Positions 2,607 through 40,340 of a stretch of DNA of 46,253 nt are shown in pieces (position 1 is the stretch's first letter; each line of letters opens with the position of its first letter). The DNA is taken from the IMG/VR virus record IMGVR_UViG_2721755496_000003, positions 1 through 46,253 of that record; one strand, written 5' to 3'. A model generated the notes under the pieces. It was not told the origin of the DNA and searched no databases. It saw nothing but the letters and a program-made list of their open reading frames with translations. A program made the position numbers and the translations under genes. Source of the stretch: a virus (Duplodnaviria > Heunggongvirae > Uroviricota > Caudoviricetes).

Positions 2607-5600
2607 TTACGCCTTCGACATCCAGATAACTGTCACTGCATTACCTGAAACCGACACCGTCACGGGTGTCCCCGCATTAAGCCTGAACACTTTGATCCAG
2701 ATTGTGCTGTAGACAGGTCTGTAACTGCCGCCACCATGCCCCGGACTTCCGCCGCTCCAGACACTGTCTGTCTGCATCCTTGAAAGGATCGCAGAGGAAA
2801 CCGGTGTCTGCTCGTTACCGTTAAAGTACAGGTGTTCAGCACTACCCAGCATCACCAGATTCATGGTAAATACCTGAGCCGGTATATACACACTGTTACC
2901 GTTAAGCACATACGTCTTCGCAATATCTCCGGTTATCTGTGCTGCAGATAAATTTCCCTTAATCACACAGTCCTGGTTTATCGTCACATTGTTGAGCGTG
3001 CCTGAACTGGCGGTGATACTGCCGCTGATATCCGCATTTTTAGCGGTCAGCTTTCCGTCCGGAGTCAGGGAAAATGCAGGGGGATTACCGCCGCTGGTAA
3101 TGGTGGGAGCCGTCAGGCGTTTCAGGAACACGTCGTTCATGAATATCTGATCGCCCTGTGCCACAAACATCGGCGTTGAGTTACCGTTTGCCTGGTCAAT
3201 AAACGCGATACGGTTGGCGGCGACAAGAAACTCGCTCAGTTTTCCTTCTTCCGTCTCCTCCATGCTGAGGCCAATCCCGGCAACATAATGTTTACCGTCT
3301 TCGGTCTGCTCAATTTTGACGCCCCACATGGCATTCCATTTATCGTTAGCGTCTTTCCACTGTTTCGAGAACTCATCAAGCCTGCTGGCGTTATCCTCTG
3401 TCAGTTCGAAATTCTCCAGCAGTTCCCTGCCAAGATGCGTTTTATTAATCAGCCCCTTGTAAAAATTCAGATAACCTTCCGCATCATCGCTGGGCTGACC
3501 GACGGCCTCCACAAATGCCGACTTACCCACGGTGTTAACACTGCGAACGTAAAAATAATAATCATGGCCTGGCCTGATATTGATACTGGCGGCTATCCAG
3601 TACAGCGCCGTGCCAAGATAGCGGGCTGTGGTTTCAACCTGCCTGATTTCCGCAATCCGCTTTTCCGAGAACCAGAACTCAAACTGTACCGTCGGATCAT
3701 AAACGGCAAGATGCGGCGTGGCGGTTATCTGAAAATAGCCCGGCGTCAGCTCAATCCGCGACGGCGCTGCCGGTGCGGCAATCCGGAACGATACCGATGC
3801 CGGATCGCCCTGTTGCCCCCAGGCATTTACCGCCCGGACTGTCAGCCTGTAGTTTCCCAGCGCCAGTTGCGTGAAGCGGTATGTGGTTTCCGTCGTCCGG
3901 GCCGTGCTGACCAGCCGCTCACTGCCGTCATCCGCTGCCACGGTCAGGCGAAGCAGGAAGCTCACCCCCTTCACCACCTTCGGCGTGTCCCATCGCGCCA
4001 GCACCTGATATTCCCCGCTGTCTGCGGTGACTTCGGCGGTCAGGTGCTGCACCGCTGGCGGCGTGACACCATTCACCGTGCCGCTCTGGTCGCCGTCAAA
4101 GTGCGCCCCGTTATCCACGATGGCCTCTTTTTCCGGTACATGCTGCACGGCGGTGATGGCATACGTGCCGTCGTCGTTCTCACGGATACTCACGCAGCGG
4201 AACAGGCGCTGGCGCAGCGTCGGCAGCTTCAGCCCCCACACGCTGTATTCAGCAACACCGTCAGGAACACGGCTCACTTTCACCTTCACGCCGTCGGTGA
4301 CGGACTGAACCTCCACGCTGACCGGATTGCCACTTCCGTCAACCAGGCTTATCAGCGTGGTACCGGAGGATGGCAGAGTGATTTCACGGTCGAGCGTCAG
4401 CGTCCGGGTCTGGCTGTTTACCGCCAGCACGCGCCCGCCGATGCTGATACCGGCATAGTCATCATCGCAGATTTCAATGACATCGCCCGGTACATGGCGA
4501 AGCCCTTCAGCACCCACGCTGAAATCCACGGTCTGCGTCTCCAGCAGTTCCGTTTTAATCAGCCACAGCCCGGCGCGGTGTGCCTGCCCCCGGCTGGTAC
4601 AGCCAAAGGCATCCATCTTCGTGACATTACGACCGTAACGGGCAATGGCCTGCGTATCTTCAACAAGCTCTGTCGCCGTCTCCCAGCCGTTGTTCGGGTC
4701 AATCCAGTTCACCTCAACGGCATTATGGCGGTCCTTCAGGGCGCTGAAGCTGTAGCGGAACGGCGCGCCATCATCCGGCATCACCACATTACTGCGGTTA
4801 TAGGTCCACACCTTATCTGATGGTCGGTCCTGCACGAACGTCAGCGTCTGCCCGTTCCATACCGGCATACAGCGCATCGCCGAGCAGAAATCACTGAGCA
4901 CATCCCACGCCTTGCGCTGTGTGCTCAGGTACGCATTACAGGTGATGCGCGGCTCCGTGCCGCCAAAGCCGTCCGGCACTGACTGGTCGCAGTACTGGCC
5001 GATGACATACAACGCCCATTTGTCCACATCCGCCGCACCAAGACGTTTTCCCATGCCGTAGCGCGGATGGGTCAGCATATCCCACAGACACCAGGCCGGG
5101 TTGTTGCTGTATGCCGGTTTAAACGTTCCGTCCCAGATACCGCTGTATTGCCGCGTCTGCGGGTTATAATTCGACGGCACCTGCAGAATACGCCCGCGCA
5201 GATGATAATTACGGCTCACCTGCTGGCTGCCGAACTGCTCCGAATCCACCTGCACGCCGACCAGTGCCGTGTTCGGGTAGCTCTGTTTCACATCGATGAT
5301 TTCGGTGTATGACGACCAGAGCGTTTTGTTCTGCAGCTGCTCTGTGGTGCTGTCCGGCGTCATTCTGCGCATCCGGATATTAAACGGGCGCGGCGGCAGG
5401 TTATCCACCACCACCGAGGCCAGATACTGCGAGGTGGTTTTGCCCTTAATGGTGATGTCTTTTTCCGTCACCCAGCCACCGTTACGCTGTATCTGAACCA
5501 GCAGGCGGACTTCCGACGGATTCCGGTCCCCCTTTGAGGTGGTTTCCACCAGTGCCTGCACACCGAAGGTAAAGCGCAGACGGTCGATGTTTGCCGACGT

Positions 5601-21823: not shown

Positions 21824-22303
21824 ATGCTTAATCTTTACATCACGCATTCTGATTTATCGCCTCCAGATTGTGTCACAAGAGAGAACAACCGGCTTAGCTC
21901 TGTTATATCCTTGCTTATTTCATCACACAATAGCGATATTATTTCCGTCACTGACTATCTTAAAAAAAATGATATCTCGCATTGTTTTTATTTCCTGTCT
22001 ACAGGGAATATACGCTTTACCACACATAACCATAGTATGATCACGGTACAGACCAAAAAAAGACCTGTTTATATAAACCACAGATCAAACAATATCTGGA
22101 CAAAACTGGTTATCAAAAAACATTTATCCGGTAGCATACCTTTTTTCCGTAGCCACTTTACTCTGTCCCAGGCAGGCATATTTAAATATGTTCTGGATGT
22201 AAACAGGAAACAATGCCAGTATTATTCAATGCAGAACCATATTTTGCATTCACAATTCATCATTCCGGTTTCTTCCACCATCGCACCGGACTGGCGATTA
22301 TGA
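21824..22303 (+). CDS. Hypothetical AT-rich protein (moron) between Rz and cos, opposite strand to the late genes
   Basis: 159-aa ORF in a markedly AT-rich island at the position lambda uses for bor; no recognisable motif. Confidence 0.3.
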   Translation: MLNLYITHSDLSPPDCVTRENNRLSSVISLLISSHNSDIISVTDYLKKNDISHCFYFLSTGNIRFTTHNHSMITVQTKKRPVYINHRSNNIWTKLVIKKHLSGSIPFFRSHFTLSQAGIFKYVLDVNRKQCQYYSMQNHILHSQFIIPVSSTIAPDWRL

Positions 22304-35298: not shown

Positions 35299-35772
35299 CT
35301 ATTTCATAAAAATAATCCAGTGGGTTTTATCGTTTTTTCCTGTTCGTTGACCGATAACAGGTTTTCTGTCGGTCAGTACCAATATCTGGCGAACAGGTAT
35401 TTGCGTTTCATTCCATTTAAAAATCAGAACTCCGTATGGACGCAACACACGAAAGGTTTCTTTAAATCCCTGCCGCAAATCATCACGCCAGGTATCTTTA
35501 TTCAGCCATCCATATTTCTTTCCCATCCAGGCGTTATCACCAACACGCTCAAGATGCGGAGGGTCGAATATAACCATCGAAAAAGATGCGTCTGCAAATG
35601 GTAGTGCACGAAAATCAGCTATCAGATCAGGACTGATAATCAGGCGTCGTCCATCACACAATGTGTGCTCTTCCTTTCTGATATCGCTAAATATCGCCAG
35701 GTCGTCATTCTTATCGAACCAGAACATGCGACTGCCACAGCACATATCAAGAATGGTTGCCGGTGCACTCAC
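35299..35772 (-). CDS. Small SAM-dependent (probable DNA) methyltransferase
   Basis: Motif I-like ILDMCCGSRMF and motif IV-like FDPPH; GTG start overlapping the upstream stop (GTGA). Confidence 0.5.
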   Translation of the reverse strand: MSAPATILDMCCGSRMFWFDKNDDLAIFSDIRKEEHTLCDGRRLIISPDLIADFRALPFADASFSMVIFDPPHLERVGDNAWMGKKYGWLNKDTWRDDLRQGFKETFRVLRPYGVLIFKWNETQIPVRQILVLTDRKPVIGQRTGKNDKTHWIIFMK

Positions 35773-36953: not shown

Positions 36954-37619
36954 TCAGACAAAACCAGCCGCTTTCCGGCGCTCATATTCCTGTTTCAGTA
37001 ACTCAATTGGCGTTGGCCCTGGCGGGTGTTTTGGCCCTTCCAGTTGTCGTCGCACTGGCGGAACACTCATGCCGTTACCAACATTCTTTGCCCATTTGGT
37101 CAACAGTCGTTCTGCAAGTCGTTTCAGCTCACTCTCAGTCATCTGACGTTCAATCCCTCTGGTGCGCATCTCGAGGCAAATGTGGTACAGCACAGGCTGT
37201 GGCCACGGGTATTTATCACTCCCGTCGTACCGCCAGGATTCATTGCGCCAGCGACGGTATTCCTCCATCACGGTATCCACCGTCAGGCCAAATGGATTTG
37301 CCCCACTTTCCGAAAGCAACGCCACAAACTCAGCCAGGTCAGGAGGCCATGTTTCACCCGTCCGGCAACGGTCCATGCACTGTCGGCAGACCTGCCGGAT
37401 TTGCTGCTCAGTCATCGCGCCAATCTGTGCAATCCAGAGCTTCGAAGGTGCGGCCCCGTTCTTCTGGGTCCAGCGGTTCGAATAAACCTCCCCCATGAGC
37501 TCCCACAGCTTCCACGCCGTTTCCGTCGCTGACAAATCCGTTTTCACGTTCCCACTGCTCACGTGCTGCCCGAATTTCCCGAACGGCCCGTGATGCGGTG
37601 CCACCTGGTGCTGCTGCAT
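36954..37619 (-). CDS. Replication protein P-like (helicase loader)
   Basis: Architecture and residues resemble lambda P (...YPWPQPVLYHICLEMRTRGIERQMTESELKRLAERLL...); AGGGGG RBS at 37625-37631; the 5' 212 nt overlap the upstream gene. Confidence 0.6.
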   Translation of the reverse strand: MQQHQVAPHHGPFGKFGQHVSSGNVKTDLSATETAWKLWELMGEVYSNRWTQKNGAAPSKLWIAQIGAMTEQQIRQVCRQCMDRCRTGETWPPDLAEFVALLSESGANPFGLTVDTVMEEYRRWRNESWRYDGSDKYPWPQPVLYHICLEMRTRGIERQMTESELKRLAERLLTKWAKNVGNGMSVPPVRRQLEGPKHPPGPTPIELLKQEYERRKAAGFV

Positions 37620-38427
37620 GGCTCACCCCCTTGCTGACTGGCTTAACCTGCGCCCTGACGTGATTTACGTGACGGGCGAATTTCTGCTCCCACTGAACCT
37701 GCGTGAAAACTTTACCCTCCGCTTCCCAGTAGTCCCGGAAGGCGACAAGTTCAGCAGGTGTAAATTCAGGCTCCGGCAGAGCCACTCCCCACAGTGCAGC
37801 CCGCCGTCGAAAATCCGGCGACGGATGCCAGCCACCGGCCATCGGAAACTTCCCGATGGGTTCGCTCAGGCTTTCCAGGTAATCAGGTTCCGCTGCCTGC
37901 AACGGCGTACCGTTCGACTCACTGGTCGGAGCACTCTCGCGCACGCGCGCGTAATGTGTGGGGTTTAATTCTTTTAGATCTGTATCTTTATTAGTTGCTT
38001 TTGTGTTGGCATCATGTTCAAGCACAACACCAACATCTGTTTGAACACCTGTTAAATTTAGTTCGCGATTTGTTTGAACATCCGCTTCCTTTCTGTTTCT
38101 TCTGGCCTGAACGGATGCTTTCCCTGCTGCTGATTTTTTGGTTAATTTTTCCCTGACTGATGCCAGATCTTCCTCAATCCGAAGATGCACCCATTCATCG
38201 CCGTTATCGCAAAAAAACTCCCGCAAGGATGGTTCCACATCAGCCCATCGCTCGTTAGTCAGACGGGCAATTTTTGCCAGCCTGTTTTTGGGTATTGGCT
38301 TCCCTGTTTGCCAGTAATTGAACATCAGCAACAAATACGCACCGTGCTCCTCTGCTGACAAATGCATGGTGTCAGCCAGGTAATCAGCTATGTACAGTTG
38401 CATGTATGGTAATGCGGCCATGTTCAC
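37408..38427 (-). CDS. Replication initiator, YdaU-type (DUF1376 N-domain plus DnaT-like C-terminal region)
   Basis: N-terminus MAALPYMQLYIADYLADTMHLSAEEHGAYLLLMFNYWQTGKPIP typical of DUF1376; position after ydaT as in Rac. Confidence 0.6.
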   Translation of the reverse strand: MNMAALPYMQLYIADYLADTMHLSAEEHGAYLLLMFNYWQTGKPIPKNRLAKIARLTNERWADVEPSLREFFCDNGDEWVHLRIEEDLASVREKLTKKSAAGKASVQARRNRKEADVQTNRELNLTGVQTDVGVVLEHDANTKATNKDTDLKELNPTHYARVRESAPTSESNGTPLQAAEPDYLESLSEPIGKFPMAGGWHPSPDFRRRAALWGVALPEPEFTPAELVAFRDYWEAEGKVFTQVQWEQKFARHVNHVRAQVKPVSKGVSHAAAPGGTASRAVREIRAAREQWERENGFVSDGNGVEAVGAHGGGLFEPLDPEERGRTFEALDCTDWRDD

Positions 38428-38500
38428 CTCATCTGGTGCCGAACCTTCCTCTGGTTATAATCTGTGCTCCCCCAATCAACAGAACCAGAGGAGGTTCGAC

Positions 38501-38896
38501 ATGGATTTTGCAACTATCACAAGTAGTGTTGTGTTGAGTGCATGTGTTGCTGGCGTGGTTTCGCTGGTTAATGGTGCCTGGCAACTCAAATCGGAACGAA
38601 CCATTGAAGCGCAACGCCGGGCTGCTGAAGCCAGGGCTAAAATAAGAGAAATGGCTCTCACCCTCGCATTGAAAGAATGGGAACTTCACCAAACCATATC
38701 GAAGACAAAGGGGTATGGTGTCAGCGGACCGGAAGTTTACGTCTTTCGATACTTTCGTATGCTCAACCTGATGGAAGAAAACAAATTCACGATTGAAAAT
38801 CTCAGACTGATCCAGTACGACTCCATGTGCGCTGTTGCAGCAATTCAGGCTGAGATCGAGCGATATCGGGAGAAAAACGGCCTCCCGATGCCATAA
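38501..38896 (+). CDS. Membrane-anchored hypothetical protein (131 aa) transcribed antisense to the replication operon
   Basis: TATAAT at 38456-38461, GGAGG 6 nt upstream of ATG 38501; N-terminal TM helix (ITSSVVLSACVAGVVSLVNGAW) then helical domain. Confidence 0.45.
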   Translation: MDFATITSSVVLSACVAGVVSLVNGAWQLKSERTIEAQRRAAEARAKIREMALTLALKEWELHQTISKTKGYGVSGPEVYVFRYFRMLNLMEENKFTIENLRLIQYDSMCAVAAIQAEIERYREKNGLPMP

Positions 38897-38900
38897 ACAA

Positions 38901-39149
38901 TCAGCGTTTTTCATCTTTCCAAATCCTCATATCAGGCTTGCGCCCGATGAACCGACGAAAACAATTTAAAATCCACCGGGTGAAGTAATCCCTGAAACCA
39001 AAGAGATACCAGGTGAACAGATTCACGATAAAATGTCCGGTCAGAGCCCCACCGATACCACAGGCAAGAACAGTAAAAAAATCATGTAGATTCACATGCC
39101 CCCCGTCATTGTTAACGCCATCCGTGCTTTTAGTGCACCACCACGGCAT
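38901..39149 (-). CDS. Small membrane protein (82 aa) following ydaT
   Basis: Hydrophobic segment FFTVLACGIGGALTGHFIVNLFTWYLFGF; overlaps the ydaT 3' end by 20 nt. Confidence 0.3.
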   Translation of the reverse strand: MPWWCTKSTDGVNNDGGHVNLHDFFTVLACGIGGALTGHFIVNLFTWYLFGFRDYFTRWILNCFRRFIGRKPDMRIWKDEKR

Positions 39150-39555
39150 TACCTGCCGGGCCGCCGCGATTCATCTGGTCATACAAAACGACCGCTGACG
39201 CAACAAAATCGTCGACTTCCTTCACCAGCCGATCCCGCCGTTCGACAATCTCCCGGTAATACTCAGAACTGTGACTGCGCATACGGGCCACCAGCAAAGT
39301 CGGCATTGCCTTTTCGATCGCAGGTAACAACGCCTGAATTTTTTCAACCGCATCAGGAGTGTCTTTCTCCACCCAGCGGAAAATTTTCTGTGTATTACGA
39401 GCCAGGGCTTCCGGATGGCTGTCTTCGTACAGTTCCGGGAACGTCATTCCCAGTTCGAAATAAGCCTGGGTTATTCCAGCTGCTGGAACTTTTTCACCGT
39501 CCGGATACGCCCAGGCATTCATCGCCATGCGGATGTGCTCATGCTTGATTTTCAT
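39130..39555 (-). CDS. YdaT-family protein (CII-like regulator of Rac-type prophages)
   Basis: 141 aa; position and size match Rac ydaT after ydaS. Confidence 0.6.
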   Translation of the reverse strand: MKIKHEHIRMAMNAWAYPDGEKVPAAGITQAYFELGMTFPELYEDSHPEALARNTQKIFRWVEKDTPDAVEKIQALLPAIEKAMPTLLVARMRSHSSEYYREIVERRDRLVKEVDDFVASAVVLYDQMNRGGPAGNAVVVH

Positions 39556-39820
39556 GAATCAAGCTCCTAGAAAATGGTTGTGTTAACGTTTTGGTATCTT
39601 CCAGCTCGGGCCAAATATTCATCCAATCAAAAGGCCTTAGTTGCTGACGTGTAACTTCACCATTACTGGCTCGCTCAATAAGGACACATAACGATGCCCC
39701 TAGCACTTGACCTTTACTCAATGCCTTTCTTAGATAACCGATGCTGGTACCACACTCGTATGCAAACATACGCTGTTCATCTGACGAAAGAGAATTGAGA
39801 AATATTCTTAATTCTTCCAT
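39539..39820 (-). CDS. YdaS-family HTH protein (Cro-like)
   Basis: ...MFAYECGTSIGYLRKALSKGQ...LIERASNGEVTRQQLRPFDW, YdaS-type motif; divergent from the repressor. Confidence 0.65.
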   Translation of the reverse strand: MEELRIFLNSLSSDEQRMFAYECGTSIGYLRKALSKGQVLGASLCVLIERASNGEVTRQQLRPFDWMNIWPELEDTKTLTQPFSRSLIHENQA

Positions 39821-39920
39821 AGCTACTCCTTAGTAAACACAGCAAAGAATACCCTCAGGTAAACAAAAGTCAATACCCACAGGTTGTTTACCTTGCGGTA
39901 ATTGCATCTATTATTTACCT
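39821..39920. promoter_or_regulatory. Divergent promoter/operator region between the Cro-like and repressor genes
   Basis: TACCCTCAGGTA (39850-39861), TACCCACAGGT (39874-39884) and GGTAAACAA/TTGTTTACC inverted repeat. Confidence 0.5.
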
Positions 39921-40340
39921 ATGGACAAATATGAATTTAGACGACAGCAACTCATCAAAATTCGTGATGAGAAATGCGATGGTAAAGCGGTTAACGTGGC
40001 CAGAAAGATCGGGCGCGAGCCTTCTTATGTATCAAGAATGTTGTACCCAGAGGGGAAAAAGGGAAAAAAACGGATCGCCGATGATATGGTGGAGATTATC
40101 GAAGAGTCCTTTGGGTTACCCCGGGGATGGATGGATGGTATCGTTTCATCATCAACGAACACAGCCTCCAGTTATGAAACAAGGGTTCTAACGCCACGAC
40201 AACGTATTTTTTTAGATCTCTTAGACGAACTGCCAGAAAGTGAAGCGGATAACTTATTAAAAACTCTTGAAGAGAAAAAACAGTATTACAATATGATCTA
40301 CGAAGAAATCCGTAAAAAGAAAGCACAAAACGCATCATAG
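39921..40340 (+). CDS. Prophage repressor (HTH, no S24 peptidase domain; RacR/DicA functional analogue)
   Basis: 139 aa with N-terminal HTH (AVNVARKIGREPSYVSRML); divergent from ydaS. Confidence 0.6.
   Translation: MDKYEFRRQQLIKIRDEKCDGKAVNVARKIGREPSYVSRMLYPEGKKGKKRIADDMVEIIEESFGLPRGWMDGIVSSSTNTASSYETRVLTPRQRIFLDLLDELPESEADNLLKTLEEKKQYYNMIYEEIRKKKAQNAS

Follow-up and report, generated by a model that had tools for sequence, protein, structure and literature searches.

Introduction

PD-λ-6 is one of the 21 systems obtained by functional selection of E. coli fosmid libraries (Vassallo et al. 2022, Nat Microbiol, PMC9519451). According to its table entry it is clone lambda-64, "Hypothetical", from strain UMB6655, validated, without escape plaques and with one coding sequence in a cloned region of 912 bp, and it was both selected and validated against lambda-vir (PMC9519451). 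The clones of all the selected systems carried the native promoter in a promoterless low-copy vector, and adsorption is reported to be unaffected by any of them; the HHpred table gives for PD-λ-6 only weak membrane-segment and holin-like matches at residues 6-40 (PMC9519451). The main text of the discovery paper does not discuss PD-λ-6 individually (PMC9519451), and no mechanism for it was found in the literature searched. Here we describe an allele of PD-λ-6 in the virus record IMGVR_UViG_2721755496_000003. The whole stretch of 46,253 nucleotides (nt) that was analysed is called the window, and its coordinates are used throughout; the loci of relatives are labelled L002, L004-L007, L012, L013, L014, L017, L024, L030, L033 and L034. 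The PD-λ-6 gene encodes 131 amino acids (aa) and belongs to a short cassette which also holds a small convergent open reading frame (ORF) and a hairpin.

The gene arrangement can be compared with that of phage phi80, in which the antisense defence gene TaiEcA interrupts a late operon and the adjacent small operon-sense AtiEcA is the counter-defence (He et al. 2024, PMC11364771). The phi80 lysogen expresses this defence, and less TaiEcA protein is present once the operon is being driven (PMC11364771). Both there and in the window, a defence gene lies on the opposite strand of a lytic operon next to a small operon-sense gene; Tai blocks tail assembly and sits in a late operon, whereas PD-λ-6 is found here in the early-right operon. 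The likeness is one of gene arrangement, and the counter-defence role of the small ORF is what we infer. The second system for comparison is BstA, whose aba, a cis element of 63 bp, extends over the promoter and the 5' end of the defence gene and protects the lytic growth of the prophage itself (Owen et al. 2021, PMC8585504). It acts as DNA and has terminal direct repeats, and BstA itself is soluble and localises to replicating phage DNA (PMC8585504). In position and size aba resembles the 65-nt element at 38437-38501 of the window; it is not presented there as a hairpin, whereas the element here has a wobble-pair pattern which favours an RNA of the opposite strand.

PD-λ-6 can also be set beside membrane proteins of other prophages. 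HK97 gp15, which is reportedly a classic moron inside a lytic operon, and P22 SieA are likewise prophage-expressed inner-membrane moron proteins that act after adsorption. They have no sequence or fold similarity to PD-λ-6, however. SieB with Esc in lambda and P22, and RexAB in lambda, are prophage-expressed abortive systems with membrane components. SieB spares P22 itself, and in both P22 and lambda it is said to be neutralised by Esc, which the phage makes and by which it spares itself. Esc differs from the small ORF of the window in being an in-frame internal product of sieB and not a separate convergent gene, and it has no homology to the cassette.

Identity of the 131-aa gene

The window is overall a lambdoid prophage with its lytic genes on the minus strand. 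The elements that belong to the defence gene, and the block in which it travels, are as follows.

38501-38896, plus strand: PD-λ-6 allele, 131 aa, predicted to have an N-terminal membrane helix and a cytoplasmic three-helix domain (PADLOC PDLC04020)
38456-38461, plus strand: -10 element TATAAT, read from the sequence
38489-38493, plus strand: Shine-Dalgarno element GGAGG, 7 nt before the ATG, read from the sequence
38432-39110, no strand assigned: whole mobile cassette (~680 bp), the homology block common to copies in unrelated contexts

The ORF at 38501-38896 opens with ATG and closes with TAA. Its product matches the PADLOC profile PDLC04020 (PD-Lambda-6) from end to end, with residues 1-131 aligned to positions 1-131 of the 131 in the profile (E-value (E) 6.9e-89, 292.7 bits), and it also matches phrog_36733, a family with no assigned function (E 3.7e-89). 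The gene is a PD-λ-6 allele in a cassette between the ydaT/cII-like and replication genes of a lambdoid (Rac/Stx-type) E. coli prophage. We are close to certain of its identity as the PD-λ-6 defence moron, and the gene itself is already catalogued as an experimentally validated anti-phage system. The first-pass annotation, which was made from the sequence alone, had proposed at this place a membrane-anchored moron protecting the lysogen from superinfection; the full-length match to a system validated against lambda-vir, with adsorption unaffected, bears this proposal out.

The reference PD-λ-6 and the window gene agree in protein length, in the N-terminal membrane segment and in the kind of lambdoid-prophage locus. 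The window allele has three substitutions, with L29, T68 and N93 as its residues there, and adjoins a DUF1376 gene and not a 361-aa gene; its identity to the common E. coli allele is 97.7%. The residue affected by R29L (38589 region) is an arginine in 11 of the 12 aligned family members, including relatives at 35% identity, and as it lies directly past the membrane segment the substitution could affect the topology or activity of the window allele. The exact sequence of the window allele is present on 25 contigs in public data. The family as a whole is rare, with nine clusters at 90% identity, and a profile search of 1.84 billion representatives returned 27 matches, all of them short, membrane-anchored and without annotation. 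Between lineages, the ratio of non-synonymous to synonymous substitution rates (dN/dS) of the gene is 0.03-0.15, and the 131-aa frame is thus conserved as a coding frame in the relatives.

The maximum of the 19-residue Kyte-Doolittle hydropathy is 2.02 at residues 5-23, corresponding to one N-terminal membrane segment. The AlphaFold2 model (predicted local distance difference test (pLDDT) 86.4) has helices at residues 3-70, 77-92 and 98-125. K and R are abundant in the flank that follows the membrane segment, which places the helical domain in the cytoplasm; PD-λ-6 is predicted to cross the inner membrane once, with its short N-terminus outside (in the periplasm) and the helical bundle in the cytoplasm. 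Foldseek searches of the model against PDB and BFVD gave nothing at E < 0.7, and the top matches to lambda P were at E > 1. No domain was found by Pfam or NCBIfam in the 131-aa protein or the small ORF, and none related to replication was found in the 131-aa protein by Pfam, PHROG or NCBIfam.

The first-pass annotation had also regarded the gene as independently promoted. The TATAAT element on which this was based is perfect, and its position is kept across lineages, inside the hairpin loop, as TATAAT, TATTCT or TATCCT. No good -35 partner was found for it, and for want of a usable -35 it was not called by the consensus promoter scan. The GGAGG ribosome-binding site (RBS) stands where it had been placed, and in the relatives it reads (A/G)GGAGG or AGAAGG.

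What the validated clone contained can be reconstructed from the published PD-λ-6 primers. Both match E. coli relatives (L002 and others) exactly, at the locus of the common allele, and define an amplicon of 912 bp, in which the entire 64-aa ORF described below is included with 59 bp upstream of it. The PD-λ-6 phenotype was therefore never assigned to the 131-aa gene alone. In the window, the forward primer site has 2 mismatches (39136-39153) and the reverse site is absent because the neighbouring replication gene differs. The published description is that of one gene, whereas here a conserved second ORF and a hairpin belong to the unit.

Insertion in phage operons

The cassette is set among the following genes and signals of the window.

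39130-39555, minus strand: YdaT / CII-like gene (Pfam YdaT_toxin, E 2.5e-10; phrog_163, CII-like transcriptional activator, E 3e-47)
37408-38427, minus strand: replication gene of the DUF1376 / YdaU family with a DnaT domain (Pfam DUF1376, E 3.9e-26; DnaT, E 6.2e-17)
36954-37619: lambda P-like gene after the DUF1376 replication gene (domain scan)
39539-39820, minus strand: cro/YdaS-like ORF upstream of the YdaT / CII-like gene
39846-39873, minus strand: pR-like promoter TTGACT-16-TATTCT upstream of the cro-like gene (promoter scan)
39921-40340, plus strand: divergent repressor-like ORF (ORF list and domain scan)

The YdaT gene is the upstream early-right neighbour, and the DUF1376 replication gene downstream is reached only across the cassette. 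The 131-aa gene runs opposite to the early-right operon, and as the YdaT/CII-like gene and the DUF1376 plus DnaT gene on its flanks are both on the minus strand, the gene map upholds the earlier statement that early-right transcription crosses it antisense before the initiator. The pR-like promoter at 39846-39873 is presumed to be the source of the operon-sense transcript which bears the small ORF and the hairpin.

The edges of the cassette were located with MAFFT by aligning the window to the copies from E. coli, Citrobacter, Trabulsiella and E. albertii; in this alignment homology is lost to the left of ~38432 and to the right of the RBS of the small ORF. A ydaT-type gene was found at 5401 places in 3032 of the 5426 complete E. 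coli genomes, and the cassette in 16 of the 5426 (~0.3% of ydaT loci). In two relatives without the cassette, ydaT and the replication gene are 22 bp apart. In E. coli the cassette follows ydaT and the other copies adjoin a different replication gene; at the loci that match the primers, the 361-aa gene takes the place of the DUF1376 replication gene of the window. In Citrobacter it directly follows a P22-type cro, in Trabulsiella it lies inside a capsid/packaging late operon, and in E. albertii it is found in a prophage remnant beside icd and an integrase fragment. As it is rare compared with ydaT, is missing at the 22-bp empty junctions and has different neighbours elsewhere, we regard the cassette as an accessory insertion and not as a part of the replication operon. 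The suggestion of a moron inserted in the replication operon is consequently sustained, with four insertion contexts, and the filled interval between ydaT and the ydaU-type gene is not a ubiquitous feature.

The orientation is constant. In every context that is an intact-looking prophage, PD-λ-6 is antisense to the operon and the small ORF is operon-sense, and the arrangement of an antisense defence gene with an operon-sense small gene is seen in the Citrobacter, Trabulsiella, other E. coli and Hafnia loci.

The convergent small gene

Two readings of the ORF that faces PD-λ-6 have to be distinguished.

38901-39095, minus strand: conserved small gene, 64 aa, with one N-terminal membrane helix and a basic C-terminal tail; GTG start at 39095, stop at 38901-38903
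39096-39149, minus strand: N-terminal extension of 18 residues which gives the 82-aa reading; specific to the window and overlapping the ydaT 3' end by 20 nt

The first-pass annotation had listed the 82-aa ORF (38901-39149) with a hydrophobic segment, its stop 5 bp from that of the 131-aa gene. The ORF is present and hydrophobic; the conserved form is the 64-aa one from the GTG at 39095, and the gap between the two stops, when measured, is 4 nt (38897-38900). In the other E. coli copies the frame upstream of the GTG is shifted by indels and the extension sequences are unrelated, and the extension is probably not translated as a part of the small protein. The start is kept as GTG or ATG across lineages, with a Shine-Dalgarno-like motif upstream. 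No convincing intrinsic terminator was found between the convergent genes, after the 131-aa gene or after the hairpin.

By tblastn, the small protein was found beside PD-λ-6 in all four contexts with 59-85% amino-acid identity. Between lineages its dN is 0.17-0.31 compared with saturated or near-saturated dS, and 33-34 of the 56-64 differences fall at third codon positions. We take the small ORF to be a real coding sequence under purifying selection because the third-position differences dominate and dN is low relative to dS. Its hydropathy maximum (Kyte-Doolittle, 19 residues) is 1.75 at residues 24-42 of the 82-aa reading, and the AlphaFold2 model is a single long helix at 3-49 with a pLDDT of 71, which is uninformative. 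Public annotations beside the 131-aa gene list a hypothetical protein of 64, 69 or 73 aa with a locus tag, including in Salmonella. Searches of PADLOC, Pfam, NCBIfam and PHROG with the small ORF gave no match, and the family of its homologues is tiny. Homology between the copies ends just upstream of the RBS of the small ORF, which is therefore without a conserved promoter.

A convergent small membrane ORF is also present beside more distant relatives, namely L012 and L013 (45% protein identity) and L017 (Hafnia, 35%), where its sequence similarity is no longer recognisable. Its overlap with the upstream operon gene in L012 is ATGA, and in both L012 and L013 the PD-λ-6-like gene and the small ORF overlap physically. 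The E. albertii remnant (L004-L007) has a 2-nt deletion which shifts the frame of the small ORF (~4406-4615 in L004), and its PD-λ-6 homologue, at 81% identity, is intact. From these comparisons, the small ORF is best described as a conserved part of the cassette and not as the mere neighbour it was earlier treated as.

Homologues of the small ORF without PD-λ-6 were found as well. The sampled sites are 3010-3153 in L014, ~2500-2690 in L033 and L034 and 4001-4195 in L030, which are homologous to window positions 38892-39080. They lie in the nin region, between ninE and a convergent low-GC hypothetical gene of 590 aa whose product matched nothing in Pfam or PADLOC. Three of the four sampled copies carry a T7-to-T6 homopolymer frameshift and L030 is intact; the homologue is un-annotated in all sampled RefSeq and phage records. 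In phage SH2026Stx1 (L014 ~560-650), about nine ATTTCT hexamer repeats stand upstream of the 590-aa cargo gene.

Another candidate on the minus strand was an antisense ORF of 161 aa at 38429-38914, which extends exactly from the end of the small ORF to the start of the replication gene and could have been an ORF coupling the two. We rejected it as a gene. Its codon register with the sense gene is such that it stays open whenever TTA, CTA and TCA are absent (chance ~0.1), and it is broken in Trabulsiella, E. albertii, L012, L013, L017 and L024.

A hairpin at the left edge

The third part of the cassette is an inverted repeat that overlaps the expression signals of PD-λ-6.

38437-38501, minus strand: hairpin / inverted repeat of ~65 nt at the left cassette edge, with arms at 38437-38456 and 38483-38501 (inverted repeats I4 and I5)

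In the plus-strand reading, the loop of the hairpin contains the -10 element and the right arm contains the Shine-Dalgarno element. The minus-strand RNA has a folding energy of -34.5 kcal/mol (z -3.9), and 0 of 200 shuffles were as stable. RNAalifold gave 27 pairs for six sequences, 7 of them with compensatory double changes, and 0 of 500 shuffles reached the covariation score. The proportion of paired cells is 92.5% for the minus strand compared with 83.8% for the plus strand, and one-sided changes which keep the pairing through G-U number eight on the minus strand and only one on the plus strand. A preference for the minus-strand RNA is suggested by these values, which come from six sequences with three of them near-identical. 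Furthermore, a plus-strand mRNA starting after the -10 element lacks the upstream arm, so the outer helix would be formed only in the host-operon transcript.

The hairpin is recognisable at the nucleotide level upstream of the relatives with 35-45% identity (including L024), and in L017 it has an energy of -31.4 kcal/mol and a z of -4.3; it is hence better conserved than the protein. A search of Rfam with the hairpin returned no family. It is absent upstream of the alternative 590-aa cargo, so it travels with PD-λ-6 and not with the small ORF.

Proposed working and competing explanations

We propose that the operon-sense parts of the cassette allow the prophage to escape its own defence. In the lysogen, the early-right promoter would be repressed, and PD-λ-6 would be made from its own promoter, sit in the inner membrane and block a superinfecting phage after adsorption. 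We lean towards a block that is early and membrane-proximal, with abortive infection as the alternative. On induction of the prophage, early-right transcription would pass through the cassette. The operon transcript would then be translated into the small membrane protein, and this would happen only when the carrier goes lytic, since the small ORF lacks a conserved promoter and reads with the repressed lytic operon. The same transcription would yield RNA antisense to PD-λ-6 and collide with the transcription of PD-λ-6, and the transcript would form the conserved hairpin just ahead of the replication genes. Together, the operon-sense parts would silence or neutralise PD-λ-6 and the prophage would be spared by its own defence, in the manner of a "non-contiguous operon". 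The decay of the small ORF fits such a role, as it is frameshifted in the E. albertii remnant and in three of the four sampled copies without PD-λ-6. The PD-λ-6 cassette together with self-immunity is the best explanation of the locus as a whole, and we favour it with modest confidence. Taken separately, the claim that the operon-sense parts give self-immunity during the prophage's own lytic growth is tentative and may well turn out otherwise. More speculative is the generalisation to a portable three-part switch for lysogeny-only defence, in which a defence gene would be joined by a small membrane protein as its antidote and by either a structured RNA or an aba-like DNA element.

A number of points weigh against this explanation. 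We infer the promoter of PD-λ-6 from the -10 element only, and the activity of the window allele, with L29 at a near-invariant R position, is assumed. The fold searches gave no mechanistic lead for PD-λ-6, and no experiment on the small ORF or the hairpin was found in the literature searched. The published clone contained the small ORF and still gave defence, so the ORF is either unexpressed there, or non-neutralising, or required for defence. In addition, ~400 nt of untranslated antisense RNA would expose the early-right transcripts to Rho. L024, a viral contig with 35% identity, has at the position of the small ORF a non-membrane ORF of 89 aa (4401-4670, minus strand) with no Pfam match. Finally, the stand-alone homologue of the small ORF (~86% DNA identity) occurs in 672 further complete E. 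coli genomes and in Stx1 phages, and given this occurrence the small ORF could be an independent neighbour or a recombination flank.

The latter observation leads to the view that PD-λ-6 acts alone, with the small ORF as an independent accessory gene or recombination flank and the repeat as promoter architecture, an mRNA stabiliser or an insulator. In its favour, lambdoid mosaicism commonly shifts short blocks jointly, and a homologue of the small ORF adjoins the different convergent 590-aa cargo in 672 E. coli genomes as well as in the nin region of Stx-type phages; the plus-strand mRNA, too, would have the inner hairpin helix at its 5' end. On the other hand, the sampled stand-alone copies are mostly frameshifted, whereas beside PD-λ-6 in intact-looking prophages the frame is open and shows purifying selection, and a convergent membrane ORF is kept in the distant relatives despite its unrecognisable sequence. 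The outer helix cannot do without the arm that precedes the -10 element and is missing in the plus-strand mRNA; this helix shows compensatory changes with G-U tolerance on the minus strand only. We consider this view unlikely. A low probability is also given to a two-component defence in which PD-λ-6 cannot work without the small membrane protein, which it might gate as a holin-like pore or a membrane effector. The validated 912-bp clone held both genes, which were never separated. In four contexts a conserved small ORF accompanies PD-λ-6, and the distant relatives have analogues in that place. For both proteins the prediction is a single membrane pass in the same topology, and the published HHpred analysis of PD-λ-6 gave only membrane-segment and holin-like profiles. 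However, an obligatory partner without a conserved promoter and oriented with the repressed lytic operon should be silent when the lysogen needs the defence. The E. albertii locus has a frameshifted small ORF beside an intact PD-λ-6 with a dN/dS of 0.10-0.15, and L024 lacks a membrane ORF at the position of the small ORF.

The short gap between the genes brings a further alternative, a pair resembling type I toxin-antitoxin systems. The small protein would be a membrane toxin of the hok/tisB kind and the unterminated PD-λ-6 transcript its antisense silencer, and infection would tip the balance and kill the cell. With convergent genes, a gap of 4 nt and no convincing terminator, the transcripts must indeed overlap; the product is small, single-pass and hydrophobic, and in L012 and L013 the two genes themselves overlap. 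But typical type I toxins are smaller than this product, which has 64 aa and a long basic tail, there is no connection between a heteroimmune phage that enters and the transcription of the small ORF, and the supposed antisense partner encodes a strongly conserved protein (dN/dS about 0.04) and is not just an RNA. Broken small ORFs, moreover, coexist with intact PD-λ-6. We find this alternative very improbable.

Significance

The gene itself is a further copy of a catalogued defence system, and the value of the locus lies in the conserved second gene and the structured element inside a validated fragment. The linked small ORF, the conserved hairpin and the antisense-in-operon placement appear to be undescribed so far. 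If self-immunity is true, PD-λ-6 would be the third unrelated prophage defence with a built-in off-switch, after Tai/Ati and BstA/aba, and the unit would be a very compact one (~680 bp) that works in early or late operons. Since the antidote and the RNA element would be read from the strand of the host operon, an antisense insertion in any phage operon, early or late, would wire the defence ON in the lysogen and OFF in the lytic growth of the carrier. Self-immunity of this kind would matter for the annotation of defence systems, in which single-gene models miss unannotated small ORFs. It would also bear on how prophages avoid autoimmunity and on the design of tests of the PD-λ-6 mechanism.

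Further accessory genes of the window

Some other ORFs of the window were recorded outside the cassette. A 341-aa ORF with an LpxR domain (outer-membrane lipid A deacylase, E 1e-37) is encoded at 28520-29545 on the plus strand, against the minus-strand late region. It lies between the Q antiterminator gene and a NanS-p-like esterase gene; it looks like a moron and may remodel the surface of the lysogen. The esterase is of the NanS-p type with DUF1737, SASA and DUF6645 (25512-27467, minus strand). Another candidate moron is the 159-aa DUF1398 ORF at 21824-22303 on the plus strand, also against minus-strand lytic genes. An orphan type II methyltransferase is found at 35299-35772 on the minus strand, and an 812-aa RecE / exonuclease VIII-like protein with a DEDDh domain is encoded at 42394-44832 on the plus strand.

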